DNA of 64,000 nucleotides from a virus, in the IMG/VR virus record IMGVR_UViG_3300027708_000033, positions 1 to 64,000 of that record. One strand, written 5' to 3'. The translations under genes were made by a program, and so were the position numbers. The notes beneath the pieces were generated by a model. The model was not told the origin of the DNA. It saw only the letters and a list, made by a program, of their open reading frames with translations, and did not search any database. Below are positions 1-54,360 of the stretch, piece after piece. Within the stretch, counting starts at the first letter, position 1. The number at the start of each line of letters is the position of its first letter.

Positions 1-119
1 TTCTAGTAGAGTTTCACGCTCTTTAGTAGCATCTTTAGGATTTGTTCCTGACGCTTTTTCTCGCCACTCTCTTGTATTTCAAAGACACGTCTTTGGAAGT
101 CGTCTAGTCCTGTGGTCAT
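1..119 (-). CDS. hypothetical protein, 5' part only (runs off left edge)
   Basis: ATG at 119 overlaps the stop of the upstream ORF (ATGA); frame MTTGLDDFQRRVFEIQES... stays open to position 1. Confidence 0.6.
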
Positions 120-259
120 TTGTTTTCTTCCTGCAATTCGTCCAGTCTAGCTGCTATTGAGTCAATGCGCTCACGAAGTACGTCTAGGGTGATACCCAAG
201 ATGTCTAGCCTCTCACCTATTCTGTCAAGCGCTATGTCAATGCTCTCAGGTTCATTCAT
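116..259 (-). CDS. small coiled-coil hypothetical protein (47 aa)
   Basis: Track ORF 116-352 trimmed to ATG 259, which overlaps the upstream stop (ATGA); heptad pattern IDIALDRIGERLDILGITLDVL. Confidence 0.6.
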   Translation of the reverse strand: MNEPESIDIALDRIGERLDILGITLDVLRERIDSIAARLDELQEENK

Positions 260-435
260 TTTTTGTATAGTTCCTTCCATGCCTTTACGGTAAAGCGTTC
301 TCCGTTTTCCATAACAACAGGACGCCAACGTCCCTCCCAGAAAAGATACCAAGTACCTTTTTGTGTCTCATGCCACTTACCTTGATTGAACCTACGGCGA
401 CTAGTTCGCCGTTCATTTAGATTCCATCTAGCCAT
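256..435 (-). CDS. small Trp/Arg-rich hypothetical protein (59 aa, not in track)
   Basis: Manually translated MARWNLNERRTSRRRFNQGKWHETQKGTWYLFWEGRWRPVVMENGERFTVKAWKELYKK; AAGGAGAGG upstream; stop overlaps next start. Confidence 0.6.
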   Translation of the reverse strand: MARWNLNERRTSRRRFNQGKWHETQKGTWYLFWEGRWRPVVMENGERFTVKAWKELYKK

Positions 436-665
436 CTAAGTAAGCCTCTCCTTGCCACACTGGTGCGCGTGTTAGTGGCTATTTTAGCAAACAAGCTCAG
501 CGCATGCGCCATTGTAGCAGGATTTTTTGATGCAGAGCGCAAATCCCAAACCCTTGATTTTCTAACCATCTGAGGCTACTTTGTACAATAATTTATAATA
601 ATTAGACGCCTCAGTTTTTGCTTATAGAGCTAACTATAAACTTATACGATTTTTGCTGCCGGCGG

Positions 666-938
666 CTATTTTTGGTAGTTTACTAGCGTCTCGGCTATTG
701 CTAGTGCGTCTAGCTTCCATCTGTCTCTAGTGCTCCAGCTATCGTCACCTGTCATCTTGAACCAGTGAGCTTGCTCAGCACTTTTCATCATTCCAATTAG
801 ACCGTCAATTATAGAGATGTACTGATGTTCGTACCCTATTAGCTCGTCGCTTCGTGCAAGTAAATCGGCCTTAGATTTTTCAAGAATCTCTTTAGCGTGT
901 ACTATCTTTGCAAGTGGATGCTGTGGGTCCTTAGACAC
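666..938 (-). CDS. hypothetical protein
   Basis: 90-aa ORF, GTG start overlapping the end of the upstream gene. Confidence 0.65.
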   Translation of the reverse strand: MSKDPQHPLAKIVHAKEILEKSKADLLARSDELIGYEHQYISIIDGLIGMMKSAEQAHWFKMTGDDSWSTRDRWKLDALAIAETLVNYQK

Positions 939-1095
939 GGAAGCCTCTATACTCTTCTACTTTGTACTCGTCAGTCTGGTACTGCTTATTTAGTTCACGA
1001 GCTCGCTCCTTGGCTTGCTCAAAGGTCCCAGTAAATAGAACAGTCTTCCACTCACCACGGGCAAGTACCACACAGTACTCTCTGGTGTTTAGCAT
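931..1095 (-). CDS. small hypothetical protein (54 aa, not in track)
   Basis: MLNTREYCVVLARGEWKTVLFTGTFEQAKERARELNKQYQTDEYKVEEYRGFRV; AAGGAG RBS and TACAAT -10 upstream. Confidence 0.7.
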   Translation of the reverse strand: MLNTREYCVVLARGEWKTVLFTGTFEQAKERARELNKQYQTDEYKVEEYRGFRV

Positions 1096-1147
1096 GAAAG
1101 ACTCCTTTCGTCTTAGGTCTATTGTAATGTCAAACTCCGGTTAAGGT

Positions 1148-1176
1148 AAAACACCCCGTATTTCTACGAGGTGTTT
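1148..1176 (-). terminator. intrinsic terminator-like hairpin with GAAA tetraloop
   Basis: Minus strand AAACACCTCGTA-GAAA-TACGGGGTGTTTT. Confidence 0.75.
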
Positions 1177-1179
1177 AAT

Positions 1180-1348
1180 GTGAGTAGATGGGTTGCGTTT
1201 TACCACCAATGCGTCTCCACCAGATTCTCTAGCGCTTACTCGCATACCTGCCGTTAGGTTTTCCACCCAGTTGATTAGACCCGACAGTGCTTTCTCCCTG
1301 TTGGAACAGAAATTCAGCCATACTCCGCTTCAGCCGTCGCTTTTGCGT
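1180..1348 (-). ncRNA. candidate multi-branched structured ncRNA of unknown family
   Basis: Extended -10 (TGtTACATT, 1356-1364) upstream and terminator downstream; several G-U-containing stems that pair on the minus strand. Confidence 0.55.
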
Positions 1349-4551: not shown

Positions 4552-5116
4552 GGCTACCTCCAGGCACCCATAAGACATCGCCAACCTCACGGTTAGCGTA
4601 CCTAGACAACACAAATAAAAGGTCAGACAGACGATTTAAATACTTTGCAGCCGTGATACTCACACCCTCACCAAAAGAATGGATAGCATTCCAAGTTTCA
4701 CGTTCTGCTCTTCTAGTGACCGTTCTTGCTGCATGCAACTGCGCTGCTAGCGGTGTCCCACTAGGTAGGACAAAACTTCTTAAAACTGGCAAATCTTTGT
4801 TGTAGTGGTCAATTAGTTTCTCTAAACGAGAGACCTGGTCCTCAGTGACTCTAAGTGGAGTAACTTTAGGCTCATCGATTACTGGTGTGCAAAGGTCTGC
4901 TCCAACATCAAACAAATCATTTTGAATTTGAAGCAAAACTTTTTTCACATCGGCGTCTATGCCCATAGACAAGGCAACTCCAATACTGGAGTTAGCCTCA
5001 TCTACGGTTGAGAATGCTTCAAGTCTGGCATCGTTTTTAGAAGTTCTGCTCCCGTCTCCGAGAGAAGTTGTTCCGTTATCGCCAGTCTTTGTATATACGC
5101 TACTGATTACTACCAA
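4541..5116 (-). CDS. pduO: ATP:cob(I)alamin adenosyltransferase (PduO type)
   Basis: VYTKTGDNGTT, TVDEANS, QNDLFDVGADL, ARTVTRRAER, YLNRLSDLLF. Confidence 0.95.
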   Translation of the reverse strand: MVVISSVYTKTGDNGTTSLGDGSRTSKNDARLEAFSTVDEANSSIGVALSMGIDADVKKVLLQIQNDLFDVGADLCTPVIDEPKVTPLRVTEDQVSRLEKLIDHYNKDLPVLRSFVLPSGTPLAAQLHAARTVTRRAERETWNAIHSFGEGVSITAAKYLNRLSDLLFVLSRYANREVGDVLWVPGGSREE

Positions 5117-39362: not shown

Positions 39363-42266
39363 TTATTTGTTTTCTAACGTTTCTATTCTAGCAGCCATTG
39401 AGGCTATAAGGCTCTCTAAAGAGGTGAGTTTCTCGGCATGAGCTCGTGCAACAATTTGAAGTGCCGACACATAAAACTCGTACTGAATAGTCTCAGGTAG
39501 CCCTTCAGAGTCGTATGAGATGTATGCATGCAGTCCGGCGTCGTGCATCTGTTCAGCAATCATACCGGCATGCTTAGGCGCAGAGCTTTCTTCTTCATTG
39601 TAGTGATACTGCACTGGTATAACAGATAGAACTTGCTCAGCTGTGTATTGTAGCGGTTCGATGTTCTTCTTAAACCTACGGCTAGACGCTACGTAGCCTA
39701 GTGTGTCAGGTGTCGTAGAAGAGGTGACGTATACCGAGCGGTAAGACGTAGTTAGAGTGTTGCCGTACACGTTCTGTGCATAGACTCGACCGACGCTCGA
39801 CAAGTTGATTACACCTAGAGTAGCACTTCCGTCATAGTAAATTCCGGCGCTAGTAGTGTTTGTTCTAACAGCAAAACCATTATTACCTGCAGTGTAGTCT
39901 CCCATGTAGGTCAGCCCGCCTAGCGGATTTATAAATATCGAAGATGCAACGTTAGCGCTTGTCAGAGCCTGAATCTGCGTCGCAGACATCTTTATTCTAG
40001 AAGAGCCGGTGTTTCCAATTATAAAGGCAACGTTTTCGTTAGTCGTCGTAACGCTTGCGCTAGCGTATCCAATCTGTACAGGACCGTTTAGACGAATCTT
40101 TGAATAGCCGCCGTTTCCGTTGACGCTACCGGCAGTTCCAATTGTGGCAATTATGTCTCCCCAACCGGTATCTAAAGTCAGGTTTCCCCAGGTCGGGTCT
40201 GAGAAAGACCCCCCACTAGTGCTAAGACCTAAAGTTCCGGTGCCTAAATACGCTGCGCTATATGGATTAGCTCCGCCTGCGTTAGTGATAGATGCTGATA
40301 AAATACCATAGGCAACAGGAGAACCTGACTGATTGTCATAAATACCGAGAGAAAATCCGGTGCTGCCACTTGTACCACTGCTGCTAAATCCGCCTAGAAA
40401 AAATGACTGTTTAGATGCGTATGCACCTAAGATTCCAGGACCTGCTGTAGTGGCACCAGGCAACGTAATGTGCCCAAACTGAATGTAGTTCACCGGGCTA
40501 GCTAGAGTTGAGTCGGCAAGACGAATTGTAGTTGTAGCAGTAATACGGTCACCTGTAATAGAACCTGCAACAATTGCGTTACCATAAAGCGTATTAGCGA
40601 CAACAGTGTTACCGTAAAGGCTGTTAGCAATAATTGTGTTACCTGATAGTGTGGCAGCAATTACTGTGTTACCAGATAGCGTATTAGCGACTACCGTGTT
40701 TCCATAAAGCGTATTAGCAAGAACGGTATTGCCAGATAAACTGTTAGCAATAACTGTGTTACCGTTTAGCGTGTTAGCGACAATAGAGTTACCTTGAAGC
40801 GTGTTGGCAATTACTGTGTTACCGCTGATAGTGTTTGCTAGAACAGTGTTGCCAGATAGGGTATTGGCAAGTATTGTGTTACCGCTTAGTGTGTTGGCGA
40901 CAATGGTGTTACCGTTTATTGTGTTAGCGATAACTGTATTGCCGTTTAGAGTGTTGGCTATTACAGAATTGCCCTGAAGTGTGTTGGCGACAATGGTATT
41001 ACCACTCAAGGTGTTGGCGATAATTGAGTTACCGAAGACCGTGTTGGCAACTAAGGTATTGCCGTACAGCGTGTTAGCTGTGACTCGGTCACCAGCAATG
41101 CTGTTGGCCAAGATGTTGTTACCGGTAATAGTGTTTGCAGCTATCTTTGCACCGGTTATGCTGTTAGCCAGAATAGCATTTGCTGTCACGGCGTTAGTTG
41201 CTATGGCGTTGGCTGTGATTGCGTTAGCAGCAATAGCGTTAGCTGTTACGGCACCAGCATCTATCTTTGCTGCTGTAATTGAATTAGCTTGAATAGCAAC
41301 AGCAGTAACGGCATTAGCTGCAATAGCGTTTGCAGTAATAGCGTTAGCAGCAATAGCATTAGCCGTTACAGCGTTAGCATCTATCTTTGCTGCTGTAATT
41401 GAATTAGCTGCAATGGCATTTGCTGTTACAGCATTTGCTGCAATTTTAGTGCCAGTAATAGCAGCCGCTGCTATAGCATCACTATCAACGGCGTTAGCGA
41501 CTATGTTTCTAGTATTGACAGCAGCATTTGCTATTGCGTTACTGTCTACAGCATTTGCTGAAATCTTAGTACTAGTGATAGCGGCAGACGCTATAGCGTT
41601 ACTGTCTACAGCATTTGCAGCAATCTTTCCAATTACAACTGCGTTAGGTGCAATCTCTATAGAGGTGACAGCGTTAGCGGCAATTTGAAGCTCTGTGACA
41701 GCGTTAGCGGCAATCTTAGTTGAGTCGATTGCGTTAGCAAGAATGTTTATAGACTGCACTGCGTTAGCGGCAAGACCGGCATTTACTACTGCACCAACTG
41801 CGATAGCAGTAGAAGTTACCGCATTTGCTGCTATCTGTGCAGACGTAACAGCGTTAGCAGCAATTTTTGCAGATGTAACTGCATCCGCTGCAAGTTTTTC
41901 ATTGACTACTGCGTTAGCAGCAATGATGGTGCTTGTCACCGAGTTGGCAGCAAGCTGAGCCTCTGTAACAGCGTTAGCAGCAATTTTTATTGTCGAGATA
42001 GCGCCGTCAAAAATCTTAGATTCGGTGACAATAAGGTCTTGAATCTGAGCAGAACCAACAGAACCACCTGCGATAAGTGTACCGTCGATGATTCCAGGCA
42101 AGATTGAGCCTTGTGTAACAGCTTCTTGCTGAATGTGAGTAGCACTAATAGTGTTAGCTGAAATCTTACGAGCAGCAGGTCTAGTTTCTAGGTTGTATAG
42201 ACGGTTGTCTATGTTTGAAATGTTACTGTTTAGAGTGTTTTTAGAGCGATAACGTCTACTTGCCAA
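39363..42266 (-). CDS. tail fibre/spike with 10-aa repeats and C-terminal intramolecular chaperone (peptidase S74-like)
   Basis: Long NAVT...IAA and ANTL.GNTV decamer repeats; SSRRFKKNI...PV.Y.Y...G.IAE followed by a coiled coil. Confidence 0.85.
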   Translation of the reverse strand: MASRRYRSKNTLNSNISNIDNRLYNLETRPAARKISANTISATHIQQEAVTQGSILPGIIDGTLIAGGSVGSAQIQDLIVTESKIFDGAISTIKIAANAVTEAQLAANSVTSTIIAANAVVNEKLAADAVTSAKIAANAVTSAQIAANAVTSTAIAVGAVVNAGLAANAVQSINILANAIDSTKIAANAVTELQIAANAVTSIEIAPNAVVIGKIAANAVDSNAIASAAITSTKISANAVDSNAIANAAVNTRNIVANAVDSDAIAAAAITGTKIAANAVTANAIAANSITAAKIDANAVTANAIAANAITANAIAANAVTAVAIQANSITAAKIDAGAVTANAIAANAITANAIATNAVTANAILANSITGAKIAANTITGNNILANSIAGDRVTANTLYGNTLVANTVFGNSIIANTLSGNTIVANTLQGNSVIANTLNGNTVIANTINGNTIVANTLSGNTILANTLSGNTVLANTISGNTVIANTLQGNSIVANTLNGNTVIANSLSGNTVLANTLYGNTVVANTLSGNTVIAATLSGNTIIANSLYGNTVVANTLYGNAIVAGSITGDRITATTTIRLADSTLASPVNYIQFGHITLPGATTAGPGILGAYASKQSFFLGGFSSSGTSGSTGFSLGIYDNQSGSPVAYGILSASITNAGGANPYSAAYLGTGTLGLSTSGGSFSDPTWGNLTLDTGWGDIIATIGTAGSVNGNGGYSKIRLNGPVQIGYASASVTTTNENVAFIIGNTGSSRIKMSATQIQALTSANVASSIFINPLGGLTYMGDYTAGNNGFAVRTNTTSAGIYYDGSATLGVINLSSVGRVYAQNVYGNTLTTSYRSVYVTSSTTPDTLGYVASSRRFKKNIEPLQYTAEQVLSVIPVQYHYNEEESSAPKHAGMIAEQMHDAGLHAYISYDSEGLPETIQYEFYVSALQIVARAHAEKLTSLESLIASMAARIETLENK
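40560..41990 (-). repeat. 30-bp (10-aa) degenerate tandem repeat array of two unit types
   Basis: Period-30 recurrence of GTTAGC/GTTGGC; exact internal duplications, e.g. GCATCTATCTTTGCTGCTGTAATTGAATTAGCT near 41257 and 41377. Confidence 0.85.
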
Positions 42267-45200
42267 TTTGGTCCGCCTGCCACTCTGGTACTAATGAAAG
42301 TGAAATCTTCTCTGGAAAGCTTGAACCATCTGGCACAGATACGTTTATACTGTCAATTTTTCTAATCATGACATCTCCACGTGGTTCTAGGTCGTTTGTC
42401 AAACGTTGCTGAATAAACTGGTCGTCAACAACAAGTGTACACCAGTCTCCAGGCGAGTAACTTCCGACTGCTGGAGTAATAGAGCCATTTACTGATACTC
42501 TTATCTTCATGTCTGGCGGTTTAGCCTCAGCAAGATACCGCTGTGCGTAACTGTACAGTAAGTTTTCGTCGTATATGTCCTGGTCAGTGTGGCTGTCATC
42601 TAGCAAAGGCCATCCAGTCATCGTTCCACTCGTCGGGTTTAGTAGGCTTGTGTCTACTGCAACTGCGTATGGCTGGCTTGCCCCATCACCTAGTTCACCG
42701 ATGTTTCCAACCATGAAGAATCTTGTCGCTGAGTTCTCAGCTGATTCGTCAATTGAAAGGTCGCTAATGTTTCCAGGAAAGTTGAACACTATTTGGTCTG
42801 CGCCGAATGCACTTGGAGGAGCAAATGTTCCCAGGTAAAGAACTCCACCTGGTAAAGCAGAAAGATATGACTGAAGACTATCAGGAATGATAGGCAGCAA
42901 GACAAAGACTCGCTTGAATGTGTTTGTATTAGGGTCGTACGAACAGTCGACTCGATACTCAAAGCCATTGATTACGTCTGAGTACTTATCTAGTTCCTCA
43001 CCAATACTTCTTGTTTCGTATCCACGAAAGTTTATAGGCAAGGTCTGAGTCTGAGAGAATCCAGCTGATGAAAAATCAAACAGCATGTCTGAGTTGTTAG
43101 TGTACCCACCGTAGGTTCCATAGTGGATTTGTGGGTTAGAAGTGGCACTAGCAAAGCCGAATGCTCGTCGTGATGCTTGGTCTCCTGTGCCTGATACTGT
43201 GTACTGTAATCCAGCACCTGCAGTAATTGTGGCAGCCAAGCCAGTGCCACCAAAAGCGCTTCCAGAAGTAGCGATTCCAGTCGGGTTAGCAATCGCGTTT
43301 TCTACTGTCTTCTTAGCCGTTGGGCTGATAGTGTAACTAAACTTGTTAGTACTAACACTGGTTATTGTGGCATTAGTGACGTTGAAGTAAGGGCTAAGAA
43401 CTGTTGTGTTTCCAGTAATGGACTTAGAACTAACAGCTACACGAAGATTCGGGTACGTAGTAGTGCTTTTTTGATAAGTCAATGATGTTCCGCTTGGAGT
43501 AGACACGACGTTACCGTTAGTCACATTGAAGATTCCATCTACGACTGTAGCCACTCCGCTTATTGACGTCCTAGTTCTATCAACTGTGTAAGGCGTAGAG
43601 GTCACAGTAAACGTTGTGTTATTCGCACTAACAACGTCGTACTCGTTTTCAACTGAGTCGATAAGACTTACTGTAGTGGCATCGGCTGTTACTGCAGTAT
43701 TTTCAGCACCGCTGGCCTTCCAGAAAATGTGTGTTGCATCTACAGATGATACAGTCCACGTGCCATTGACTCCGTAGCTGTATGCTGCTGCGACTGTTCC
43801 AGGACTTGACACCGAGGTTCTGTTGCCTGAGTACTCAATTTTGTCGTCATACTGTAAAGTGTAGTCGTCTACAACCTTAGTAACTTTAAATCGACCATTC
43901 TTAAAATAACCTGACCCAATTGGTGATGTCCAGCTAGTGGTCAAATACACACCGGCTTTTAATCCATGTTTAGCGCCAAATTGAATGTTGACTAGGCTAT
44001 ATGTTTTTACATCTGGCTTTGCAGCTTTTCCGTGTTTTGCCACTAAGGTCGGAGTTAGTGTCTTAGTAGTCTTGTACCCGGTGACAGTAATTTTGTCGTT
44101 AGCTTTAACATTGTGATTGAGTGGCGCAGTTAGACGCACTATCTTGTTGTAGATGTAAACTTCGGTACACGAGACTGTACGCCGTGTGACGCCGCTTACC
44201 GTGACTTTATCAGCGACAGCAATGTTATGAGTAGCCGAGGTTGTAAAGACTAATGAATTAGTTGCGTATGTAAACGCGTATCCTGTAATTGCATACGTGT
44301 CTTTTACACCTGTAATTGTTACTGTGTTGCCGACTATTAAGTTATGCGGTGTGGCGGTATCTACTGTGAATGTAGCAATAGAGTTGGCTATACTCATTTT
44401 GCCGGTTGTAGTTTTAGTTAGGTCGGTGACACCTGAAACTGTTACTGTTCCTCCTAATGAATAGCCGTGGGCTTCAGCTGTAGTAAGCGTTGCAACGTTC
44501 GCATTGAGCTGGCGAGCAACCACAGTAGTGGTGTCGTACAGACCGCTTACATCTACTGTCACAGACGCGTTTACAGTTCCTAATCCGTGATTTTCTGATG
44601 TAGCGATTTGGACTATGTTGTTTGAAGACTGACGGTATTGAACTAGTGCGTAGGCGGTAGCCGTAGTACTGGTGAGTGTTCCGCTAGTAGTGGAACTGCT
44701 TTTTATTGTAAAACTTGACGCGTCTCTTGCGATTATTCTGCTGAGAGCTCCGCTGTTGATTGAGACGTACTGCCCGACCGAGAAGGCATTTGCACACTGG
44801 TAAACTGCTGTAGTTCCATTTGCAGATACAGAAGTAACTGTTTTATTTTTTAGAACAGCTGTGGTTACAGTTCCTGGAGACAGTGTAGTTAGGCCTTCGC
44901 TGTTCTTGGTGCCGGTGCTGTACTCAAAAGATGACTTAGTTGGAATGTTTGTCACTTTAACTGTGCCATCAAAACGATTAGTACTTCTAAGTGGATTGTC
45001 TAGACCTTCTAGCGTCACAGACTGGCCAACGTATAAACCATGAGGTGATTCAGTTGTAACAAGCGCAGTTCCTCCACTGAGTGTTCTGCTCGTGGCTCTA
45101 ACATAGACCGGGCTAGTTGCAGCGTAAGTTATACTTCCACCACCACTGTCATAGGTTACGTTTGTTCCTGACACCGAGGTTACTGTTTGGTATCCATCAA

Positions 45201-46050
45201 AGTTTGTGCCTACGTTAAATACTTGGAACTCTTGGCCTGGAATCAGAGTCGGAGTTGCATTCATCGTTATAGTTGCAACGCCGTCTGTTATTCCACGGTT
45301 TGTAATCGCTAACGTTGTGTTCTTTGACGGCTCTATTTCGTTGTTTGGAAAAGTAGTTCCATTAAAGTCTTTAGACACTGTGCTAATAAGTGAGCGCACG
45401 TAATCGTAGGTGTTAGTGTGCACATCGATAGTGACAGCTGGATAGGACCCGTCTGGCAAGGTAACTGAAGACAATGTCTGTGTCGCCACTGAAACTGCAC
45501 TTGCAGTAAAAGTCGCCACTTTAGTGGTGTCGTCTGCAATAGAGTCTGCAGAGAGCTTGTAGTATCCGTTGTATTTAAAATAATTTATGTCGCTCATAAT
45601 GATGTGGACAGTAGAGTCCTCATTTAATGTGTAGGTCATTCCATAACTAATGGTTGCTGTTATTACTCCACCTGACACTGAAAGATCGGCAGTAAAACTA
45701 TTGTGCCAAGTTCTCCATGCGCGGCGATGGTAAAGATAACTTGTAAACTCAGAGGCGCTAACATCTAGCTTCTTGGAAATAACATCGTACGTTCTTCCCC
45801 AGATAATTCCGCCCCAGACGCAGACACCATTTCTAACCACATACAGCGCAGTTTTACCAGGTAGAGTCGTGTCGTAGACTCCAAGTTTTGCAGTGTCAGG
45901 TGTAATTCCGATGCTACCGCTAAAAGAACCTGCACCTTTTAGCGCGCGCTCGTAGGTGACGCCTTTAAACGGGATTTCACCGAAGACTTTATTGGTGAGC
46001 AAATCAGCCGTAAAGTAGCGATAGGAATAAGTTCCATCGTTATTTGCCAT
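42256..46050 (-). CDS. minor tail (hub/Tal-like) protein with many inserted beta-domains
   Basis: Core Y...DLLT..V.GEIP...WGGIIW and C-terminal Y.PGDWC.L.V.D; follows the Dit-like gene. Confidence 0.8.
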   Translation of the reverse strand: MANNDGTYSYRYFTADLLTNKVFGEIPFKGVTYERALKGAGSFSGSIGITPDTAKLGVYDTTLPGKTALYVVRNGVCVWGGIIWGRTYDVISKKLDVSASEFTSYLYHRRAWRTWHNSFTADLSVSGGVITATISYGMTYTLNEDSTVHIIMSDINYFKYNGYYKLSADSIADDTTKVATFTASAVSVATQTLSSVTLPDGSYPAVTIDVHTNTYDYVRSLISTVSKDFNGTTFPNNEIEPSKNTTLAITNRGITDGVATITMNATPTLIPGQEFQVFNVGTNFDGYQTVTSVSGTNVTYDSGGGSITYAATSPVYVRATSRTLSGGTALVTTESPHGLYVGQSVTLEGLDNPLRSTNRFDGTVKVTNIPTKSSFEYSTGTKNSEGLTTLSPGTVTTAVLKNKTVTSVSANGTTAVYQCANAFSVGQYVSINSGALSRIIARDASSFTIKSSSTTSGTLTSTTATAYALVQYRQSSNNIVQIATSENHGLGTVNASVTVDVSGLYDTTTVVARQLNANVATLTTAEAHGYSLGGTVTVSGVTDLTKTTTGKMSIANSIATFTVDTATPHNLIVGNTVTITGVKDTYAITGYAFTYATNSLVFTTSATHNIAVADKVTVSGVTRRTVSCTEVYIYNKIVRLTAPLNHNVKANDKITVTGYKTTKTLTPTLVAKHGKAAKPDVKTYSLVNIQFGAKHGLKAGVYLTTSWTSPIGSGYFKNGRFKVTKVVDDYTLQYDDKIEYSGNRTSVSSPGTVAAAYSYGVNGTWTVSSVDATHIFWKASGAENTAVTADATTVSLIDSVENEYDVVSANNTTFTVTSTPYTVDRTRTSISGVATVVDGIFNVTNGNVVSTPSGTSLTYQKSTTTYPNLRVAVSSKSITGNTTVLSPYFNVTNATITSVSTNKFSYTISPTAKKTVENAIANPTGIATSGSAFGGTGLAATITAGAGLQYTVSGTGDQASRRAFGFASATSNPQIHYGTYGGYTNNSDMLFDFSSAGFSQTQTLPINFRGYETRSIGEELDKYSDVINGFEYRVDCSYDPNTNTFKRVFVLLPIIPDSLQSYLSALPGGVLYLGTFAPPSAFGADQIVFNFPGNISDLSIDESAENSATRFFMVGNIGELGDGASQPYAVAVDTSLLNPTSGTMTGWPLLDDSHTDQDIYDENLLYSYAQRYLAEAKPPDMKIRVSVNGSITPAVGSYSPGDWCTLVVDDQFIQQRLTNDLEPRGDVMIRKIDSINVSVPDGSSFPEKISLSLVPEWQADQIGK

Positions 46051-46096: not shown

Positions 46097-49000
46097 TTAG
46101 CCGATCCAACCGGAGCGAAACTTCACCTCTAGTGTTCCGGTAGTATTGCTTCCGGCATCGGTAATCTTGATTGTGTTGACGCCTGGCTGAATAACAATCC
46201 AGTCAACTAGTGTGTCTAGCAGCTCGCGACTTCCAGTAGTGTTGTTGTTCAAGAACACATCACGATTATAGGTGTCTATTACCATGAATTCATTGTTAGT
46301 CAAAGTAACTGTTCCTGTCGCTGCAGCGTACGCGTAATCTGCTGAGGCGCCTGTGTAAACATAGGTCAAGTCTAGAGTCGTTGAACTTGTGAAGTTGACA
46401 GCTTGGACTACAAAAGTTCCATCAAAACTGTTTCCAACTGAGGCTATGGTAACGCTGTCTCCGACAGCTAGTTTATAGTTAGTAGAAACTGAAACTGTTG
46501 CATACTTGACTCCGTCGGTAGTGACACGCTTTACTGCAGTCACCGGGCCTAGGCTTAGTCCAGCTGCGCTTAGCGCACTAAGCATCTTTATGCTTTGGTT
46601 AGTGGTTGTGTTCTTGATTACACTGTTTGCAGTAAACGGTCCGGTGACTGTCATCAATGCGCATACGTTAGTGTTGCCGATGTTGTTGAACGTTGCACTT
46701 CCACCTGAGGTAATAGTTGACTTTGTAAAGCCTTCATCTACAGTAGTGTCATAGTGGTACTTGATTGGGTCAGGTGCACGAAGTCCCACGGAGAAGTCCA
46801 TACGACCACGAGCATTCACAACATCGATAGTCGGCTGGCCGCTCAAACGAACTTGAGCGCCTTTTACCGGCGACTCGTCGGCTAGTAGCCAGCCTTTAGT
46901 GCGTACAAGGTCTATGGCCTTTACAAGTTTGTTTCTTGCAGCATCTATGTACGAAGCGTCAGGCGGCAGGATTGACCCCTTGAGCTCAATTTGCCTTGCC
47001 GTGTATCTACCAACTACGTCGTAGGAACCGTCTCCAAGACCGCGTGGTAGGTCCTGAATGTCGCTCTGGGTCTGTCCCCACCAGCCATTAATTCCTGTGC
47101 AGACCCAGACAATCGAATCCTCATCAATAGTGTTTAGGATTAGTCCGTTTATGTTCACATCGGCATTTAGCTGCATACCTGTAAGGTGAGGGTATGGAAC
47201 AGGACGTAAGGCGTTATTGACCTTTGTAGTTTCTTGGCCTTGGCTAAAGTCGTCTGTGTACTCATTGACATAGGCAGATGCTTCTAGCATTGCAGCGTCA
47301 ATCAAGAACTTCTGTCCTGCAGTTCCAGCGGTAGGCTGGTACAGTCGTATCTGTGCAATTACAGCATCTGCAGGAGCAACAGCAGTTACAGCTAGTCGTA
47401 CCCAGCCTTCGTCGCTGACCATTGGTATAAGTGCGCCGGTAGCAAACGAGAGCTGTGTACCTGTAAAGTCGTACCAGTAGAGATAAAGCCTAAGTGAAGA
47501 GGCTTCTTGCCCAACTGGAATTTTTACATATAACGACGCAGAATAAGTTGTGCCTGGAGCAATTGCTGTAACACTGCCGTCAAAATAAGAAGTCGGTGTA
47601 GAACTTGCTTCAAACACTGCACCATCAAAATAAGCCTGAGTACCGCTTGCTGGCGTGGCGGTTGAATAAAATACAAGACCTGCCGTTACCGCTCCGAGAG
47701 GAGCAGTTGCCGTGACGCTTATGCGAGTCCAACCTGAAGACGTGACTGTCTTAGATGTTCCGTTTATAGTTGAAAAACTAGAGCCACCGCTGTTTCTCCA
47801 CTCAATGCCTGCGTAGTACGAAACCGCAGTGTTGACGTCACGGACATAAATAGAAGAAGTGTACGTGACACCAACAGTTACCGCCGTCCACGCAAAAGCC
47901 ACACCTGAGTTAAATATTCCAAAGGTTCCAAAACCGTCCGCGGTAACTAAGGCCGATTTAGTTCCAATGTAAAACTGAGACGCTGAAGCAACTGCAGATA
48001 TAGAGTTAAGAGACCCCCAGCTAGGATTAGCAAGATACTGCTGGACGCTAGTACTTGCGTTAGCAGTGCCAGACCATGCATAAGTTAGATTAGCTGCAGC
48101 CGTTGTGCTGCCATCAAAGTATGACTTAAGCTGAGAAGACTGTTCTACTAGTAACTGGTCGTAATAAAAGACATCTCCCGCTGACGGGTTAGTGACAAGC
48201 TCTATTTTCATAGTGGTTAAGTCAGAAGGCATAGTATAAGTTCGGCTTATTCTAGTCCAAGTTCCTGCCGTAACTGAAACTGCCGTAGATGGGTATAGAC
48301 TACCAGAACCAGTGCCGAGCGTCATAAATAAAGAAACAGTTTGTGCACGACTAGCGTACACATATACTGAGGCGGTATAAGTTTTGCTTGCAAAAGTTGA
48401 CCCATTAGCAAAAAAGTCTGATGTTAGATTAAGTTGGCTCGCTCCTGTTCCTTGGTACACATTAACAGCATACGAGTAAGAACCGCTTTGCTTGTCTGCA
48501 CTAGTTCTGTATCGACCGTATGCCAAGTTTCCTGGGTTGTATCCAGAAACCCAACCATCAACCATGTTTGCAACTTGATTACTTGTTGAAGCATCAGCGG
48601 TTCCATTCCATGTGTAAGTGAAGTCACCTGCTGCAGTCGTTGACCCGTCAAAATACGTATTAACTGAAGAACCTGCTTCAAGCATAGCAGCGTCTATGTA
48701 AACCTGTGAACCATACGCAGCTGTTGAAGGAACTACTAGTACAAGTGAAGCACCTGTTGCAGCAGCGGCTCCAGCTCCAGACGGAGCAACGCCAGTGACG
48801 CTAATTCTTGTCCAAGAACCGGTAGAAATAGCTGTTGCAGTACCACCACTAGTACTTATGTAACCTCCGCTGCCACGCCAGTCAATATTTACATAAATGT
48901 TTCCACCGAGGCTTAGGTCTTTAACATATAAAGAACCAACATAAGTAGTTCCAGCAGTGACGGCCGTGTTATAGGAATAAGTGGCGAGATTGCCAGAACT

Positions 49001-50011
49001 ACTAAGGCTTGTCACTAAACCGCTATAAGTACCTAGATAGCTCGTTGTAGAACTTCTAGCAACGATACTTTTTGCCAAATCTGCTGAGTAGTTAGGTGCA
49101 GCAGAGTATTGCTGTAGACTTGTGCTTAAGTTAGTGGTGCTAGACCAGGCATAAGTAAACTCATTAGCAGCAGCGGTGTTCCCATCAAAGTAAGGCCTAG
49201 TCGTTGATGCTAGGTCTATCAGAACGGCGTCTAGGTAGAAAGTTTTTCCTACAGCAACTGTCGCGCTGTTTAGTACATAAAAAGTGTAGTTTTGAGCAGT
49301 AGTCGTGGTAAATGTAACTGAAAGTCTTTCCCAAGTATCGTACAAAGTCGCGTTTGTAGATGTCACTGCAAAGCTGGTTCCTTGAACGCTAAGCTGTGGT
49401 AGAACAGAACCAGTTGGAGTGTAGACGTACGCAGAATAAGTGTATGTTGTAGTAGCAGGCAGGGAAAGTGCGTATCCGGCACCATTGTTTGTTCCACCTG
49501 TACCAGCGGCGTACGTGACAAGCAAACTTTGACTGCCGACGTATTTTTGCGCAGTAGACACGGCAATACTGGCAGTATTTGGTGTTGCTCCAGCACCAAG
49601 CCAACCATTCGTAGGAGTAGTAGCGTGTTCAAAACTTGGGTTTGTGCACAAGTTAATTCTGCTAGTAGTTGTAGTAGAAGTTGCCGCAAAGTTTGGGTTA
49701 AGAATTAGATTAGTGCGAATGGTTGCCGTGCTAGACGATGCTTCAAAACCAGGGTTAGTCGCTAAGTTAGTTCTAGCAGTGGTTGTGGCAGTAGTGTCTT
49801 CAAAGCTTGGATTGCTGATTAGGTTTGTAGTTGCAGCTGATGACCATGCCACACCAGCTGAAGCAATTGCTGGCTTAGTCACTTCTAGACATGTGCTGCC
49901 AAAGAAGCCATCCGTTGTGCTACGAACAAACGAAGTTCCACTTCCAAGAGCGGACCATCCGGTAGTGTCTGTCTTAAACGACGGGTTACCTATAAGGTTT
50001 ATACGACTCAT
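46097..50011 (-). CDS. distal tail (Dit-like) protein with carbohydrate-binding-module-like domains
   Basis: Follows the tape measure gene; NL..NPSF/YFDG CBM-like repeats; C-terminal GWWG..R.I.L.G..L.APDP.K..N.G....PG.N.I...RSGW. Confidence 0.8.
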   Translation of the reverse strand: MSRINLIGNPSFKTDTTGWSALGSGTSFVRSTTDGFFGSTCLEVTKPAIASAGVAWSSAATTNLISNPSFEDTTATTTARTNLATNPGFEASSSTATIRTNLILNPNFAATSTTTTSRINLCTNPSFEHATTPTNGWLGAGATPNTASIAVSTAQKYVGSQSLLVTYAAGTGGTNNGAGYALSLPATTTYTYSAYVYTPTGSVLPQLSVQGTSFAVTSTNATLYDTWERLSVTFTTTTAQNYTFYVLNSATVAVGKTFYLDAVLIDLASTTRPYFDGNTAAANEFTYAWSSTTNLSTSLQQYSAAPNYSADLAKSIVARSSTTSYLGTYSGLVTSLSSSGNLATYSYNTAVTAGTTYVGSLYVKDLSLGGNIYVNIDWRGSGGYISTSGGTATAISTGSWTRISVTGVAPSGAGAAAATGASLVLVVPSTAAYGSQVYIDAAMLEAGSSVNTYFDGSTTAAGDFTYTWNGTADASTSNQVANMVDGWVSGYNPGNLAYGRYRTSADKQSGSYSYAVNVYQGTGASQLNLTSDFFANGSTFASKTYTASVYVYASRAQTVSLFMTLGTGSGSLYPSTAVSVTAGTWTRISRTYTMPSDLTTMKIELVTNPSAGDVFYYDQLLVEQSSQLKSYFDGSTTAAANLTYAWSGTANASTSVQQYLANPSWGSLNSISAVASASQFYIGTKSALVTADGFGTFGIFNSGVAFAWTAVTVGVTYTSSIYVRDVNTAVSYYAGIEWRNSGGSSFSTINGTSKTVTSSGWTRISVTATAPLGAVTAGLVFYSTATPASGTQAYFDGAVFEASSTPTSYFDGSVTAIAPGTTYSASLYVKIPVGQEASSLRLYLYWYDFTGTQLSFATGALIPMVSDEGWVRLAVTAVAPADAVIAQIRLYQPTAGTAGQKFLIDAAMLEASAYVNEYTDDFSQGQETTKVNNALRPVPYPHLTGMQLNADVNINGLILNTIDEDSIVWVCTGINGWWGQTQSDIQDLPRGLGDGSYDVVGRYTARQIELKGSILPPDASYIDAARNKLVKAIDLVRTKGWLLADESPVKGAQVRLSGQPTIDVVNARGRMDFSVGLRAPDPIKYHYDTTVDEGFTKSTITSGGSATFNNIGNTNVCALMTVTGPFTANSVIKNTTTNQSIKMLSALSAAGLSLGPVTAVKRVTTDGVKYATVSVSTNYKLAVGDSVTIASVGNSFDGTFVVQAVNFTSSTTLDLTYVYTGASADYAYAAATGTVTLTNNEFMVIDTYNRDVFLNNNTTGSRELLDTLVDWIVIQPGVNTIKITDAGSNTTGTLEVKFRSGWIG

Positions 50012-53000
50012 CCGCGAGCTCCTCTACGCATTTGAAGTTGAAGCACACGACCGACTTCAGCAGCAAGTTCAACGGTGTCCATTCCAGGACTCGAGTTGAC
50101 ACTTATCGAAATGTTGACATCTCCACTAGACTGTGCTCCTGCCATACGAGCAATAGCCTGGTCAGGGTAACTGCCGTTGTTGACAGCGTTTAGTAGTGGA
50201 AGATACTTCTTTGTCGACAGGGCGTTGACAACAAACTCACCAGATGAAATCATTGCAGGAATCAGGTCGTCACGAGGACCACCACGGCCAACAGCGTAAC
50301 CTGAACCGTTTACATATTTTGCGATGCCGCCGTTTGCAAGTTTAAGAAGTCCGCCGTCTTTCTTTTTCTTGAAGGCATCAACAATAGACTGGAATGCGCT
50401 ACCCCAAGTGCTCCCATCAAACAGGTTAAAGCCCTTAGGCTTATTTTTTACGTCAAAGTCTACAGGAATCTTTACTGTACCAGGCTTGAGTTTAGCAACA
50501 GCATCTTGAACCTTAGTTTTTCCAGTTGCAATGCCGTCTACAAGTGTTTGTGCCCAGTGAGCACCATGCTCTTTGACACCTTCGTCGTAGATTGCTTTCC
50601 ACGTAGTTAAAGTTTTCTGTGCTTCTGTGACTGTTAGCGCCTTTGAAGTCATGCCCTCGGATAGGGCCAAAGCAGCCTTAGCACCTACTGTTGAAAAAGC
50701 TGTCTGAATTACACTTGCCTGATTAGATATACCAGTTGCTGCACCACTGGAAGCTGTTGCGGCCGCAGCTTCAAATGATGCTCTAGCACGTTCAATAGTT
50801 TTGGTGCCTCCGTCTACCATCTTCTGTGCTAGCTGTGCTGCAATCTTCGGGTCCATAGCGCTAAGACCTTTGATAGTAGCGTCACCGGCATTGTGCGCAG
50901 CTAGGTACAGAAGATTGTTTTGGAAGGCAGCAGCTTCTCTAACTTGCCTGTTCTGCTCTTTTAAGAACTTGTCTAGAGAAACTTTTCCATCTGTGGTAGC
51001 AGCGTCAATTGCGTCGGAGTAGCTTATCATTTTGCCGGCTGCATCTGTGATGCCCTTGGCTAGGTTTTCAGCTGCGACCCTGTTGTTCTCCATTTGAGCA
51101 GCGCCTTTACCCTGAGCCAAAGTGACCAGAGTCTGCTGCCGCTCTTGTTCAGTCATTGCTGCGGTGTTGATACCTAGACTTGTCGCTAGCTCCTGAATGT
51201 CTGTTTTATAGTCAGGCATTGTGTCAAGAAGTGCTGATACGGCTTCATCATTATCTCCGAGAGCTACACTCATTTCCTGGAAGCGAGCCTGAGCAGCAGG
51301 CATGTTGCTTTGAGCTAGAGTACTGAGTTGAGAGCCAACTTTTTTAAGTTGACCGGCCATCTGGTCAAACTCAGCAACCATTGCTCGGCTACCAAGATAG
51401 TCACCAGCTTGGTTGAACCAAGGAGCTTTAGTGTAACTGTTAAGTTTAACCACAGCAGCACCCAAGTCTTTGCTACCTACAGCTGCAATTTTTATAGTCT
51501 TATTCGCATCGGCCCATTGGGTAGTCCAACTGCTGCTAGGCAGTAGGTCGACAAAGTTGACGGATTCCAATGACTTTCTTAGTGTCACTGCACCGTCTAC
51601 ACCGGTGAGTAGCGAGTTCCTAATTTGGTCACCGGACATTGCTGCATCTAGTCTTGCCTGCTTAAACGCCTCGTCCAGTTGAACAGCAACATCGAGAAGA
51701 ACTCCGGCTGCCATTGCCCAGCCGGCACCTTTAGTTAGTTTTGAGAAGAATCCGTTTTTAGCAACGTTTGCAGTTTTAAGTGCTGCTTCGTTTTTAGCAA
51801 CGGCTGTAGTTTGCGCTTCAGCTGCTAACGTGGCTCTGCCTTGGGCGGCTTTTAGTTCAGACTGGCCTAGCACAGCCTTTTGTGCAGCCACGTTTTCACG
51901 CTCAATGGCTAGTGCTAAGTCTTGCTCAGCTTTAGTTTCTCGCATGACTGCGGCAGTGTATCTATCTGCTGCGGCGGCTCTCTCTGCGTCGCTTGCTGTT
52001 CCGGACTGATTGACCTTCATTGCCTCAGCTTCAGCAATGTTAGCCTCATTTACAGCTAGTGCTAGCTTGTCCTCAGCCTGAGTCCTAGCATTAGTCGCTT
52101 GCAATAATCTTGCTCGCTGAGCAGCAAGGCTTGCCTCAGCCTTTTGAACTCCAAGAGTGGCTTTGTCTAATGCAATGTTAGCAGCCTGAAGAGCTTTTGT
52201 AGTTTTTGCTGCCTCTGCGTTAGCAGTCTTTACGCGGTTAGTTTCACCAAACAGCGCATTCATTCCTCGTGTCACTGATTTTAGTTGGCCAATGAAGTAA
52301 TTAAAGATAAACTGTGCACCCTTGAATCCAAAAATAAGAGCAACTATTGCACCATGGAATACGCCTAGAACGTCTAAAACAGGTTTTAGTGCATTTAGCA
52401 CATTGGTGACAATGTCTACAAGTCCAGAAAGAGTTCTAAAGAATGTGCTCGCAGCACCAGAATCAGATAGAGCAGCAATAAACTTAGTTAGACTTACAAG
52501 AAGCTGTGCAAGAGCAGGCTGAGTCTTAATAGATTCTTGAAGAATAGTTTGAATAAACGGAGTCGCTTGTTTTAGCGTCTGCCAGAATATCTTTGTTTCA
52601 GGAGCAGTTCCTAACTCCTTGAACACATGTAAAACACCACCTATTGTGGTGAGCATTTCCTTTGTATTAGCCGCAGCTCCAAGGAAATACGATTGAGATT
52701 TACTCTGCCCGGCAACTGTGTTCATTTCACGCCATTTGCCTGTAGCTGTCTGAAGGAAATTCAGCATTAGTTGGCCGCCACTTGTTGGGCCAAAGTTAGC
52801 CTTTATCAGACCGCCTAACCCTGAGAACACATTTCCAGCAATTTTACCGAACTGTGCTGCAAGCTCACCGGCGCGGTTGAAAAACTTAGTTAGTGAACCG
52901 TCCTGGAGACCTTTAGTCACAAAGTTGTTAAACTTAGTTGAAATAGTTACCAGCCAGCCGGCAAACTTTTCTGTTAGCGGCGCAGCGGCTTTAAGTATTC

Positions 53001-54360
53001 CAAGCATTCCACTAAAAGCGTTTCCAGCAGCTTTACCAAAGCTAGATAGCACGGTACGCGATGTGGAGACAAATGAGTCCATTCGACCGCGAACTGTTGC
53101 GGTATCAAAGATGTCAACAAAGTTTTTAGTTGCATCTCCCATGCCGAGAGCTAGCTGGTGAATGTTACCCTTTAGCGCAGGAAATGCCGGTCCGTGGATT
53201 AGTCTATCTAGTTGCTGCTGTAATACTGGTAAGAATCCAGAAGCTGCCGCTTCCTTTAGTGCTTGAAACTCTGGATGCATCTTTGCAAGATATCTAGCAA
53301 ACTCTTTCTGCGTCACAGTGAGCTTCATTAGCGCTGCGTTAGCTTGCTCAGCTCCTGCAGTTTGAGCTCGTCTTAGTGCACGCTCCGCTGCAGCCTGAGA
53401 CTGAAGTGCGTCACGTAGAGTTTTGTTTAGGTCTAGCTCGGCATTGTTTCTTGCATTTGTCGCATCGCGGACAGATTCGATACCCATGATTCCAGTTTGT
53501 GCAACACGGTCTTGCTCTTTACTGGTAACTTCTGCATTTGCCTTTGACCTGCGAAAGGCTAGTTCAGCCTCCTGGTACTGAAGCATAGCCTGTCTACGAG
53601 CCATGCTGCTAGGCGGCATATCCTGAACACGGGCAAGAGTCAATCTTGCCTTTTCAAGGTTTAGACTTGCACCTGTCTCATCTAGCGCAGCTTGTTCAGC
53701 TTCAAAGCCAATCTGCCGCATTTGTTCACGGCCGTCTTTAATGGCATTATTTAGATTATGTTGTGCCTCTTCAAGGCGCTTATGTGCAGCTGCTAGGCTT
53801 TCATCGTTGCGCTGAATGGTTTGTGCTAAGGCACGTTCAGCATCTTGCTGCGCTCTTGCTCGTTGTACGCCACCTGTAGGGTTTGCTAATGTGCTTGCTG
53901 CAGCACCGACACCGGACAGCGCTAGTTTAGCAACTGCAAATCCTGCTTTCAGTCCGGCAAAAGCGCCTACTACTGCAACTAACGAAGCTGCAGCACCACC
54001 AGCGACTCCGATTAGAGAACCTAAACCTCCGACTAGAGAAGATACGCTGCCAGATAGAACACCAATACCGCCTTGAGCAATGTATCCAGCCTTGCTCAAG
54101 GCCATCATCTTTTCACGAGCCTTATCAGCTCCAGGAGCAAGCGACTCTAACTTGTTTAGAATTTCATCAAAGCCGCCGCCTTTGCTGCCTCCACCACTGG
54201 CCATTCCTTTTTCAAGGCCGCGACTTATATCTTGTCCAGCCTTTTGACCGATGCCTTCGGCACCGCGAAGTTTGTCCTTTAGGTCTCTCTCAAAACCTTC
54301 AGTAATTACGCGCGCAATGAGCGTAATGCTACCAACGTTATTAGCGCCGCCGATGGCCAT
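50008..54360 (-). CDS. tape measure protein
   Basis: 1450 aa, Ala-rich and helical, follows the chaperone pair; C-terminal G.GGPRDD.IPAMIS.GEFVVNA. Confidence 0.92.
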   Translation of the reverse strand: MAIGGANNVGSITLIARVITEGFERDLKDKLRGAEGIGQKAGQDISRGLEKGMASGGGSKGGGFDEILNKLESLAPGADKAREKMMALSKAGYIAQGGIGVLSGSVSSLVGGLGSLIGVAGGAAASLVAVVGAFAGLKAGFAVAKLALSGVGAAASTLANPTGGVQRARAQQDAERALAQTIQRNDESLAAAHKRLEEAQHNLNNAIKDGREQMRQIGFEAEQAALDETGASLNLEKARLTLARVQDMPPSSMARRQAMLQYQEAELAFRRSKANAEVTSKEQDRVAQTGIMGIESVRDATNARNNAELDLNKTLRDALQSQAAAERALRRAQTAGAEQANAALMKLTVTQKEFARYLAKMHPEFQALKEAAASGFLPVLQQQLDRLIHGPAFPALKGNIHQLALGMGDATKNFVDIFDTATVRGRMDSFVSTSRTVLSSFGKAAGNAFSGMLGILKAAAPLTEKFAGWLVTISTKFNNFVTKGLQDGSLTKFFNRAGELAAQFGKIAGNVFSGLGGLIKANFGPTSGGQLMLNFLQTATGKWREMNTVAGQSKSQSYFLGAAANTKEMLTTIGGVLHVFKELGTAPETKIFWQTLKQATPFIQTILQESIKTQPALAQLLVSLTKFIAALSDSGAASTFFRTLSGLVDIVTNVLNALKPVLDVLGVFHGAIVALIFGFKGAQFIFNYFIGQLKSVTRGMNALFGETNRVKTANAEAAKTTKALQAANIALDKATLGVQKAEASLAAQRARLLQATNARTQAEDKLALAVNEANIAEAEAMKVNQSGTASDAERAAAADRYTAAVMRETKAEQDLALAIERENVAAQKAVLGQSELKAAQGRATLAAEAQTTAVAKNEAALKTANVAKNGFFSKLTKGAGWAMAAGVLLDVAVQLDEAFKQARLDAAMSGDQIRNSLLTGVDGAVTLRKSLESVNFVDLLPSSSWTTQWADANKTIKIAAVGSKDLGAAVVKLNSYTKAPWFNQAGDYLGSRAMVAEFDQMAGQLKKVGSQLSTLAQSNMPAAQARFQEMSVALGDNDEAVSALLDTMPDYKTDIQELATSLGINTAAMTEQERQQTLVTLAQGKGAAQMENNRVAAENLAKGITDAAGKMISYSDAIDAATTDGKVSLDKFLKEQNRQVREAAAFQNNLLYLAAHNAGDATIKGLSAMDPKIAAQLAQKMVDGGTKTIERARASFEAAAATASSGAATGISNQASVIQTAFSTVGAKAALALSEGMTSKALTVTEAQKTLTTWKAIYDEGVKEHGAHWAQTLVDGIATGKTKVQDAVAKLKPGTVKIPVDFDVKNKPKGFNLFDGSTWGSAFQSIVDAFKKKKDGGLLKLANGGIAKYVNGSGYAVGRGGPRDDLIPAMISSGEFVVNALSTKKYLPLLNAVNNGSYPDQAIARMAGAQSSGDVNISISVNSSPGMDTVELAAEVGRVLQLQMRRGARG

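Follow-up and report, generated by a model that had tools for sequence, protein, structure and literature searches.

Domain insertion is usually one level deep, and long, regular self-nesting is in print, as far as we found, only for Si3 of cyanobacterial RpoC2. Two reports describe Si3 as a set of recursively inserted hybrid-motif domains, so that recursive self-insertion is already in the literature (PMC13114784, PMC11515920). There, an ECOD-wide survey of 2.7 million domains uses Prochlorococcus RpoC2, with eight domains in a six-level recursive architecture, as its showcase (PMC13114784), and the HABAS domains of Si3, inserted one in another, reportedly swap elements of secondary structure (PMC11515920). 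Here we analyse P0001, a phage tail protein of 1264 amino acids encoded by the minus-strand open reading frame (ORF) 42256..46050 in 64,000 nucleotides of viral DNA (positions 1 to 64,000 of the IMG/VR record IMGVR_UViG_3300027708_000033; this whole stretch is called the window). A preliminary description had placed a six-deep nest of one domain at 43140-44645, that is, at residues ~470-970 of P0001. According to predicted structures, this tail-tip hub protein very probably builds a side arm from one small beta-barrel, each copy plugged into the middle of the previous one. The principle is known from cyanobacterial RNA polymerase and, as far as we found, is apparently new for a phage tail protein.

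Like Si3, P0001 would have one small beta domain family inserted in its own copies, level upon level, so that an essential core protein sends out a long projection from one of its loops. The building blocks differ, Si3 being made of HABAS (sandwich-barrel hybrid) domains and the P0001 array of an FCCH-like six-stranded barrel in a phage baseplate hub; no RNA polymerase chain is among the matches listed for either of our structural models, and the likeness is one of architecture, not of family. The nest of P0001 runs in one line without branches and has the same split point throughout, whereas Si3 is described with bifurcating nodes and domain swaps. Si3 was reportedly solved experimentally (by Qayyum in 2024), whereas the P0001 array is known from prediction only. 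The phage barrel family also has a two-polypeptide version, which we count as a further difference from Si3. We found no paper describing recursive self-insertion in phage tails, and the word 'nested' does not occur in the text of the mycobacteriophage tail-tip papers on Douge or on Claus/Corndog/Mysterious; supplementary tables (e.g. Tables S1/S2 of PMC13114784) could list deeper nests.

In the architecture that we propose, six-stranded FCCH-like beta-barrels form an out-and-back array that would break into the hub fold past about residue 240, each barrel being inserted in the same central loop of the previous one. The chain would run outward through the first three strands of barrels 1, 2, 3, 4 and 5 to a complete barrel 6, return through the last three strands of barrels 5, 4, 3, 2 and 1, and, before re-entering the hub, supply barrels B and A, which lie upstream, with a strand apiece. 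Taken as a whole, a hub protein with an out-and-back nested barrel arm is the best explanation of the data, with a probability of roughly 0.72, and it is based on structure prediction and the bookkeeping of half-domains. These two approaches show the order of the half-domains, the conservation of that order, the nested pairing of three of the five split barrels and the splitting of the hub fold.

Order of half-domains along P0001

All twelve motifs named in the preliminary description, six N-terminal halves (N-halves) and then six C-terminal halves (C-halves), were found in P0001 in the order given there. His-Gly/His-Asn turns lie at H488, H528, H569, H608, H646 and H695, and Asn/Gly-Gly/Thr 'return' motifs at about 718, 762, 801, 842, 890 and 935. 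The parts of the protein are listed below from its N- to its C-terminus; spans are those of structural matches found with VIA-align (next section) and follow the numbering of model 1.

45331..46050, minus strand: hub fold, N-terminal part (residues 1-240); mean pairwise identity 0.70
45136..45324, minus strand: barrel A (residues 243-305); profile match 256-301, score 60.9; closed by a far strand in the models
44884..45111, minus strand: barrel B (residues 314-389); profile match 327-378, score 75.1; closed by a far strand in the models
44683..44880, minus strand: domain C, a contiguous side domain (residues 391-456); VIA-align spans 156..234 to 162..254, Z-score (Z) 5.7-6.0
44539..44682, minus strand: N-half 1 (residues 457-504, with H488); N-half profile; blocks of predicted local distance difference test score (pLDDT) 90-94
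44428..44538, minus strand: N-half 2 (residues 505-541, with H528); N-half profile 518-545
44302..44427, minus strand: N-half 3 (residues 542-583, with H569); profile 562-585; start of span 308..649
44182..44301, minus strand: N-half 4 (residues 584-623, with H608); profile 603-621; start of spans 348..603 and 353..603
44068..44181, minus strand: N-half 5 (residues 624-661, with H646); profile 636-659; start of span 387/388..561; lysine plus arginine (K+R) 16 per cent
43780..44067, minus strand: innermost whole barrel, D6 (residues 662-757, with H695); full-length profile 684-736; net charge +7
43663..43779, minus strand: C-half 5 (residues 758-796); C-half profile 762-776; end of span ..561
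43537..43662, minus strand: C-half 4 (residues 797-838); C-half profile 811-820; end of span ..603
43435..43536, minus strand: C-half 3 (residues 839-872); C-half profile 830-845; the span reaches 884, past this approximate boundary
43309..43434, minus strand: C-half 2 (residues 873-914); C-half profile 895-907; half-profile score 24.0
43186..43308, minus strand: C-half 1 (residues 915-955); C-half profile 928-951; Y950 invariant
43096..43185, minus strand: return segment (residues 956-985); strands 958-962, 967-971 and 974-977 (model 723-727, 732-736 and 739-742)
42259..43095, minus strand: hub fold, C-terminal part (residues 986-1264); mean identity 0.75; aligns with the C-terminal part of the 659-amino-acid protein of phage DSL-LC01

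A profile of the domain was derived from 51 contiguous copies (barrels A and B and the innermost barrel of 17 homologues). Within the array of P0001, it matches by its N-terminal half only (positions 2-31) at 478-490, 518-545, 562-585, 603-621 and 636-659, over its whole length at 684-736 (score 75.5), and by its C-terminal half only (positions 22-52) at 762-776, 811-820, 830-845, 895-907 and 928-951. The summed positive score of the N flank is 44.7, compared with a maximum of 6.6 in 100 residue shuffles. The split point falls at about profile position 27-29 in all five barrels, and the claim that each domain is inserted in the same loop of its predecessor therefore holds.

Half-specific profiles read P0001 as NC NC NNNNNN CCCCCC. 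For P0001-P0017 this string is circular, because the profiles were trained on that family; outside the training set, the GenBank proteins Zooman gp85 and Pumpernickel gp97 give 5 N then 6 C and 6 N then 5 C, respectively, and the half-specific profiles find no N/C run in the DSL-LC01 protein. All 16 metagenomic homologues preserve the N-then-C order, as do two Microbacterium phage proteins at 33-39 per cent identity, and H488, H528, H569 and H646 are invariant in the alignment with the 16 homologues. The two hub parts are the most conserved segments, and the arm domains have mean identities of 0.47-0.63, none being more variable than the others. The return segment (mean identity 0.64) is above its neighbours, with G965, A967, T979 and G981 invariant, and domain C is absent from P0015-P0017 (an alignment gap).

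The preliminary description had pointed to intact copies elsewhere as evidence that the halves are normally contiguous. Copies that are contiguous in sequence do occur (P0001 256-301 and 327-378, the C-terminus of the neighbouring Dit protein, ORF 57544-59100 and ORF 59119-60264), but the two in P0001, barrels A and B, are each closed by a strand of the returning chain in both structural models.

The only DNA repeats at 43000-44800 are a 27-nucleotide pair of 81 per cent identity (44299-44325 and 44422-44448) and two shorter pairs. Since this is the sole 27-nucleotide pair left at the DNA level, the copies are old; nothing in the repeats of 43000-44800 points to a recent duplication or reveals in which order the insertions took place. 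Repeated insertion at one site, as previously suggested, is plausible, and the array may have arisen by repeated insertion of whole barrels into the barrel that was then innermost.

Predicted structure of the nested barrels

Residues 236-1000 of P0001 were modelled with AlphaFold2 from a 17-row alignment (model 1; mean pLDDT 87.5, predicted template modelling [TM] score 0.61, all beta), and a second model covers the full length of the homologue P0015 (1200 amino acids, 53 per cent identical; mean pLDDT 68, with the array mostly at 75-89). Model 1 was compared by VIA-align with 48,161 representatives of the PDB and with 981 chains ranked by Foldseek. In these comparisons, solved contiguous single barrels of ~80 amino acids align to discontinuous, strictly nested spans of model 1:

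Model span 308..649 (residues 543..884): 72-78 residues aligned, Z 6.6-8.1, riboflavin-synthase-type barrels
Model span 348/353..603 (residues 583/588..838): Z 5.8
Model span 387/388..561 (residues 623..796): 75 residues aligned, phi92 endosialidase 256-337, Z 9.8, root-mean-square deviation (rmsd) 1.8
Model span 427..522, contiguous (residues 662..757): 82 residues aligned, phi92 4hiz_C Z 10.7 and K1F 1v0e_A Z 9.9, rmsd 1.9

The proposed pairing of N-half i with C-half 7-i is thus seen directly for three of the five split pairs, in the nested spans 543..884, 583..838 and 623..796, and only weakly for the two outer ones. Nested pairing is supported directly by model 1 for levels 3-6, and that of levels A, B, 5 and 6 is supported by its presence in both models; across the two, nested spans superimpose on solved barrels with rmsd of 1.8-2.9. 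Recursive self-insertion is found in the predicted models only, as the spans 243..979, 314..973, 543..884, 583..838, 623..796 and 662..757. A Foldseek search of the whole model against the PDB gave mostly meaningless long alignments (TM score <0.12).

The barrels of endosialidases (K1F endoNF 424-507; phi92 256-339) are the best structural match to the tip barrel and to barrel 5, at 15-17 per cent sequence identity. The endosialidase beta-barrel is inserted in a propeller. It is likewise an inserted domain of a phage host-recognition protein, but is present in single copy and not nested. The FCCH domain of E1 (PF16190) has the same fold as the array barrels: E1 structures align to span 388..561 with Z 7.9-8.8 (9mc4_A, Z 8.0; 7sol_A, Z 8.8; 74-76 residues aligned, rmsd 2.6-2.7), and Foldseek returned the E1 fragment 4p22_A with a probability of 1.00. 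Published FCCH cases in phages are single contiguous domains.

Predicted insertion of the array in a hub fold

In model 1, barrel A is matched over span 8..744 (residues 243..979; 76 residues aligned, Z 8.5, rmsd 2.4) and barrel B over span 79..738 (residues 314..973; 79 residues aligned, Z 8.6, rmsd 1.9). The returning strands 967-971 and 974-977 seem, in the models, to complete first B and then A by supplying the last strand of each. Corresponding spans are present in the P0015 model:

P0015 span 243..918-921: barrel A, Z 8.1-9.0
P0015 span 314..907-910: barrel B, Z 8.2-9.4
P0015 span 556..731: level 5, Z 8.3-10.0
P0015 span 596..691: innermost barrel

Solved hub proteins head the VIA-align list of P0015, with spans of about 10..1191 and 119-255 residues aligned (Z 8.3-10.0, rmsd 2.9-5.4); structures matched over 10..1191 have no more than 178-255 residues aligned. 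They comprise the phiCD508 needle (Z 10.0), the monocin tip (9.9), Douge (9.7), Bxb1 (9.5), 80alpha (8.7), Mu gp44 (8.6) and NF5 Tal (8.3), and p2 ORF16 is also among them. Because these proteins align across 10..1191, the whole array interrupts the hub fold; in the predicted structure, the array splits a baseplate-hub fold, as tested on the homologue P0015 and not on P0001 itself. The six-level order of the preliminary description stands, but six is not the full depth: with A and B closed by returning strands and the array inside a split hub fold, the nesting is deeper.

In position and fold, P0001 resembles the hub/Tal proteins of siphophages (80alpha, NF5 gp17, p2 ORF16, Bxb1 and Douge; Mu gp44 / T4 gp27 type). 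It differs from them in carrying ~745 residues of barrels inside the hub fold, whereas in the known hub/Tal proteins the extension is appended instead. The 659-amino-acid hub protein of DSL-LC01 represents the minimal form and lacks the nest: between its N- and C-terminal hub parts lie only barrels A and B and a short return.

Relatives and a split Dit protein

A search with residues 457-955 against 1.84 billion representatives retrieved 50 proteins. An N-half run followed by C-halves was called in all but one of the 49 newly retrieved annotated proteins. The exception, P0044 (1782 amino acids), has ten N-half-type matches ~94 amino acids apart (one gap is twice that) and no called C-half, which suggests whole domains in simple tandem, their C-halves having diverged, rather than a nest. 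Judged by sequence, the array also occurs in much longer proteins, such as P0041 (2198 amino acids), in which two whole barrels, six N-halves and six C-halves were noted at residues 1290-1902, ~1000 residues further in.

Of 67 proteins that were scored, 53 looked complete (at least 250 amino acids after the last C-half). The N-run called was six in 33 of them, five in seven, four in five, seven in three, three in three and one in two; in the runs of seven, the N-half-like stretch of domain C is counted as well, and some halves are known to have been missed where counts are low. Counts of this kind carry noise, since the half profiles often fail to pick up a C-half. We found no convincing hub protein with one to five levels among the relatives, only zero (DSL-LC01 and ORF 4631-6628 of metagenome locus L006) or about six.

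Eleven other representatives of 50 per cent clusters have N-runs of 5-8, only 1-3 C-halves, and an end 0-49 amino acids later. At first sight these are counter-examples. They have the form of ORF1 at two metagenome loci (L007 4995-11810 and L009 1-5313), where two ORFs share one Dit protein, the cut lying at the innermost point of a nest. In ORF1, the C-terminal domain of Dit breaks off at position 86 of the 97 in its profile (PF22768, 29.1 bits) and is followed by eight N-halves, three C-halves and a TAG stop. ORF2 starts 9 nucleotides past that stop and has four fn3 domains (E 3.8e-31), no N-halves, exactly five C-halves, CBM-like modules, a phrog_14138 region (a family also matched by the Dit of the window) and, at its end, the conserved final Dit strand. 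The bracket count balances, with eight N-halves against 3 + 5 C-halves. This balance is evidence for the pairing rule that does not depend on AlphaFold, and its implication is that five of the barrels are put together in trans.

Possible function of the arm

The innermost domain had been described as Lys-rich and as a candidate receptor binder at the tip. In P0001, it is indeed rich in Lys and Arg: K+R make up 14 per cent of residues 662-757 and 16 per cent of residues 624-661, but 0-10 per cent of the other segments. The net charge of the tip barrel is +4 to +8 in 14 of the 17 homologues, and its range is the widest of any array domain. One report places one of three polysialic-acid sites in the endosialidase barrel and calls this barrel a hotspot of host discrimination (PMC12632334), and another describes FCCH domains as outward-facing decorations on the tail tubes of the siphophages NBD2 and MED16 (PMC13576161). 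On the strength of the endosialidase match, these decorations and the tip charge, we favour, but hold loosely, a candidate function by analogy as a stiffened adhesion or positioning arm, the tip of which would touch an anionic wall polymer. The distal barrels 5 and 6, positive in this lineage, would contact an anionic glycan of the host cell wall, giving weak adhesion or positioning much as the polysialic-acid-binding barrel inserted in endosialidase tailspikes may do.

Both ends of the array lie at its base, which allows a long projection to grow from a loop of a protein that needs its N- and C-terminal parts in the baseplate. The two strands linking successive barrels would give the arm more stiffness than a string of beads has. 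Solved hub proteins are trimers. If P0001 forms such a trimer, each tail tip would carry three arms.

If this architecture is correct, the use of recursive insertion by a second, unrelated fold would show it to be a general way for a protein with both termini fixed in an assembly to extend a long projection from a loop. It would also be a new kind of tail-tip arm, with the number of levels setting its length and the distal domain as an obvious candidate for touching the host. Protein designers would gain from nature a modular out-and-back scaffold, the insertion loop of which is permissive, and the two-gene Dit would exemplify how several split domains can join proteins in nature.

Alternative explanations

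Several results weigh against the nested arm or against parts of it. The topology was read from the first and last aligned residues of the VIA-align matches, not from coordinates or predicted aligned errors, and the models were built on an alignment of just 17 rows. AlphaFold2 may fill in half-domains that it knows as patterns. No VIA-align match listed for either model has the spans that barrels 1 and 2 should give (the list shows every target a single time, with the barrel that fits it best). The pairing of these outer barrels is weakly suggested by high pLDDT, by their position between nested levels and by a two-chain prediction, in which residues 457-541 and 868-955 reached a median interaction prediction score from aligned errors (ipSAE) of 0.35 over three runs, compared with 0.00 for the best of three controls (at least 88 per cent of contacts agree, and partner pLDDT is at least 58). 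The ipSAE mark is reached by 58 of 80 solved complexes and by 2 of 110 mismatched pairs, and at 0.60 or under by only 7 of those 80 complexes and by both passing mismatches. The C flank gives a weak profile signal, with a summed score of 7.0 against a shuffle maximum of 6.1 and mean of 0.5 (100 shuffles), and all five matches are to the C-half. When similarity matrices of N-halves and C-halves are compared, nested pairing gives r = 0.14 and ranks 37 of 120 permutations (parallel pairing ranks 112), a result that we do not count as support. The C-terminal hub part of the P0015 model has pLDDT <50, which accounts for the rmsd of 3.8-6.4 of its hub matches. L007 and L009 are near-identical, and thus count as one observation. 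The tip charge is +1 in P0015, -6 in P0016 and -9 in P0017, the latter two being the most distant homologues.

The shallow 17-row alignment and the weak C-half signal could also mean that the halves fold locally, with N-N and C-C packing into barrels or a beta-solenoid and the nested model as an AlphaFold artefact, and the eleven representatives with N-runs of 5-8 but 1-3 C-halves in one polypeptide would suit such packing. We regard this as very improbable, since the surplus of five N-halves in ORF1 equals the five orphan C-halves in the adjacent ORF2, at the end of which the last Dit strand is found, the hub protein and its homologues have as many N-halves as C-halves, and the nested spans recur in two models close to solved barrels. 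A different way of completing the barrels is a three-dimensional domain swap, in which N-halves of one subunit of a hub trimer pair with C-halves of its neighbour to give one intertwined trimeric stalk instead of three arms. A monomer model cannot reveal a swap, the split Dit must complete five barrels from two polypeptides (so that pairing in trans appears possible), the two-chain test of the outer halves was weakly passed, and an exchange of secondary-structure elements is reported for the HABAS domains of Si3 (PMC11515920). We nevertheless consider a swap quite unlikely, because the barrels close in cis at high pLDDT in both monomer models and no sequence feature calls for one.

It is also possible, although on balance unlikely, that the nested arm is real but serves as a passive spacer or decoration, with host recognition left to the CBM-rich Dit and the fibre. 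The same barrel decorates Dit and two other virion proteins of the window, FCCH domains are reported as decorations that face outward on siphophage tail tubes (PMC13576161), the adjoining Dit has CBM_4_9 modules (E 1.5e-18) and the fibre an S74 chaperone domain, no arm domain is more variable than the rest, and the most distant homologues do not share the tip charge. Against a passive role, about six levels are kept in relatives down to 33 per cent identity, which suggests that length matters; moreover, the nearest solved barrel binds glycans, and charge is concentrated distally in 14 of 17 homologues.

We therefore retain the nested, out-and-back barrel arm of the hub protein as the preferred reading. 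A more speculative extension, which we put forward tentatively and rate somewhat below an even chance, is a strict 'balanced-bracket' grammar, in which eight barrels (A, B and 1-6) stand in one line inside the hub, giving nine levels and exceeding the six of the ECOD survey showcase. The grammar would also act across polypeptides, the split-Dit barrels forming a zipper that joins two gene products, and nesting would be both an evolvable setting of arm length and an assembly route.

Gene, tail module and named relatives

P0001 is best explained as a baseplate-hub (Tal-position) protein of a large actinobacterial siphophage. Its N-terminus (residues 7-116) matches phrog_1885, 'minor tail protein' (E 1.7e-24), and its gene lies in a tail module, all on the minus strand, in the order tape measure protein, Dit, P0001 gene, fibre, which is the position of a Tal gene:

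50008-54360, minus strand: tape measure protein; phrog_4197, E 6.8e-48
46097-50011, minus strand: Dit, 1304 amino acids; phrog_33, E 2.5e-23; SPP1_Dit C-terminal domain; four CBM_4_9 stretches (E 1.5e-18)
39363-42266, minus strand: fibre, 967 amino acids; Peptidase_S74 intramolecular chaperone domain at its end

No lysin or peptidase family was found on P0001 (Pfam, E up to 1), nor was a C-terminal fibre extension, the hub fold forming the end of the protein. The term 'Tal-like' of the preliminary description is therefore valid for gene position and for the hub fold (seen on the homologue P0015), but not for a lysin domain. PF06605 (Prophage_tail) likewise has no match on P0001 at E up to 1 and is annotated on three of the 16 homologues (P0005, P0007 and P0011). 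E1_FCCH (PF16190) scores 17.4 bits at residues 518-574 and FlgD_tudor 19.9 bits, both below threshold (the 29.5-bit gathering cut-off and a cut-off of 26.9 in Pfam, respectively); PF16190 is annotated on three of the 16 metagenomic homologues.

The 16 metagenomic homologues aligned with P0001 are 27-73 per cent identical over residues 300-1000. The nearest named relatives are minor tail proteins of the ~190-kb Microbacterium phages Zooman, A3Wally, Big4, Cece and Pumpernickel (33-40 per cent identity), and the 659-amino-acid protein of the Actinomycetia phage DSL-LC01 is a further one. A whole-model search of BFVD returned one clear relative (A0A6G6XIJ2, 1247 amino acids, E 3.8e-48) and many cyanophage structural proteins. 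Since the Microbacterium phages are culturable relatives (on M. foliorum), the prediction is directly testable.

Other features were noted in the neighbouring proteins. About 500 residues of the 967-amino-acid fibre are mostly short Ala/Asn-rich heptad-like repeats. The 1304-amino-acid Dit has five short copies of a CBM-type first strand in its first ~130 residues, then several CBM_4_9 bodies, and the Dit core at its C-terminus; the barrel profile matches it once, at residues 1171-1205. The minus-strand ORF 57544-59100 has a partial barrel-profile match at 263-298, whole matches at 298-341 and 397-441, and a C-half-only match at 361-373 between them, which may represent a branched nest. One whole copy of the barrel profile is present at 248-292 of the minus-strand ORF 59119-60264.

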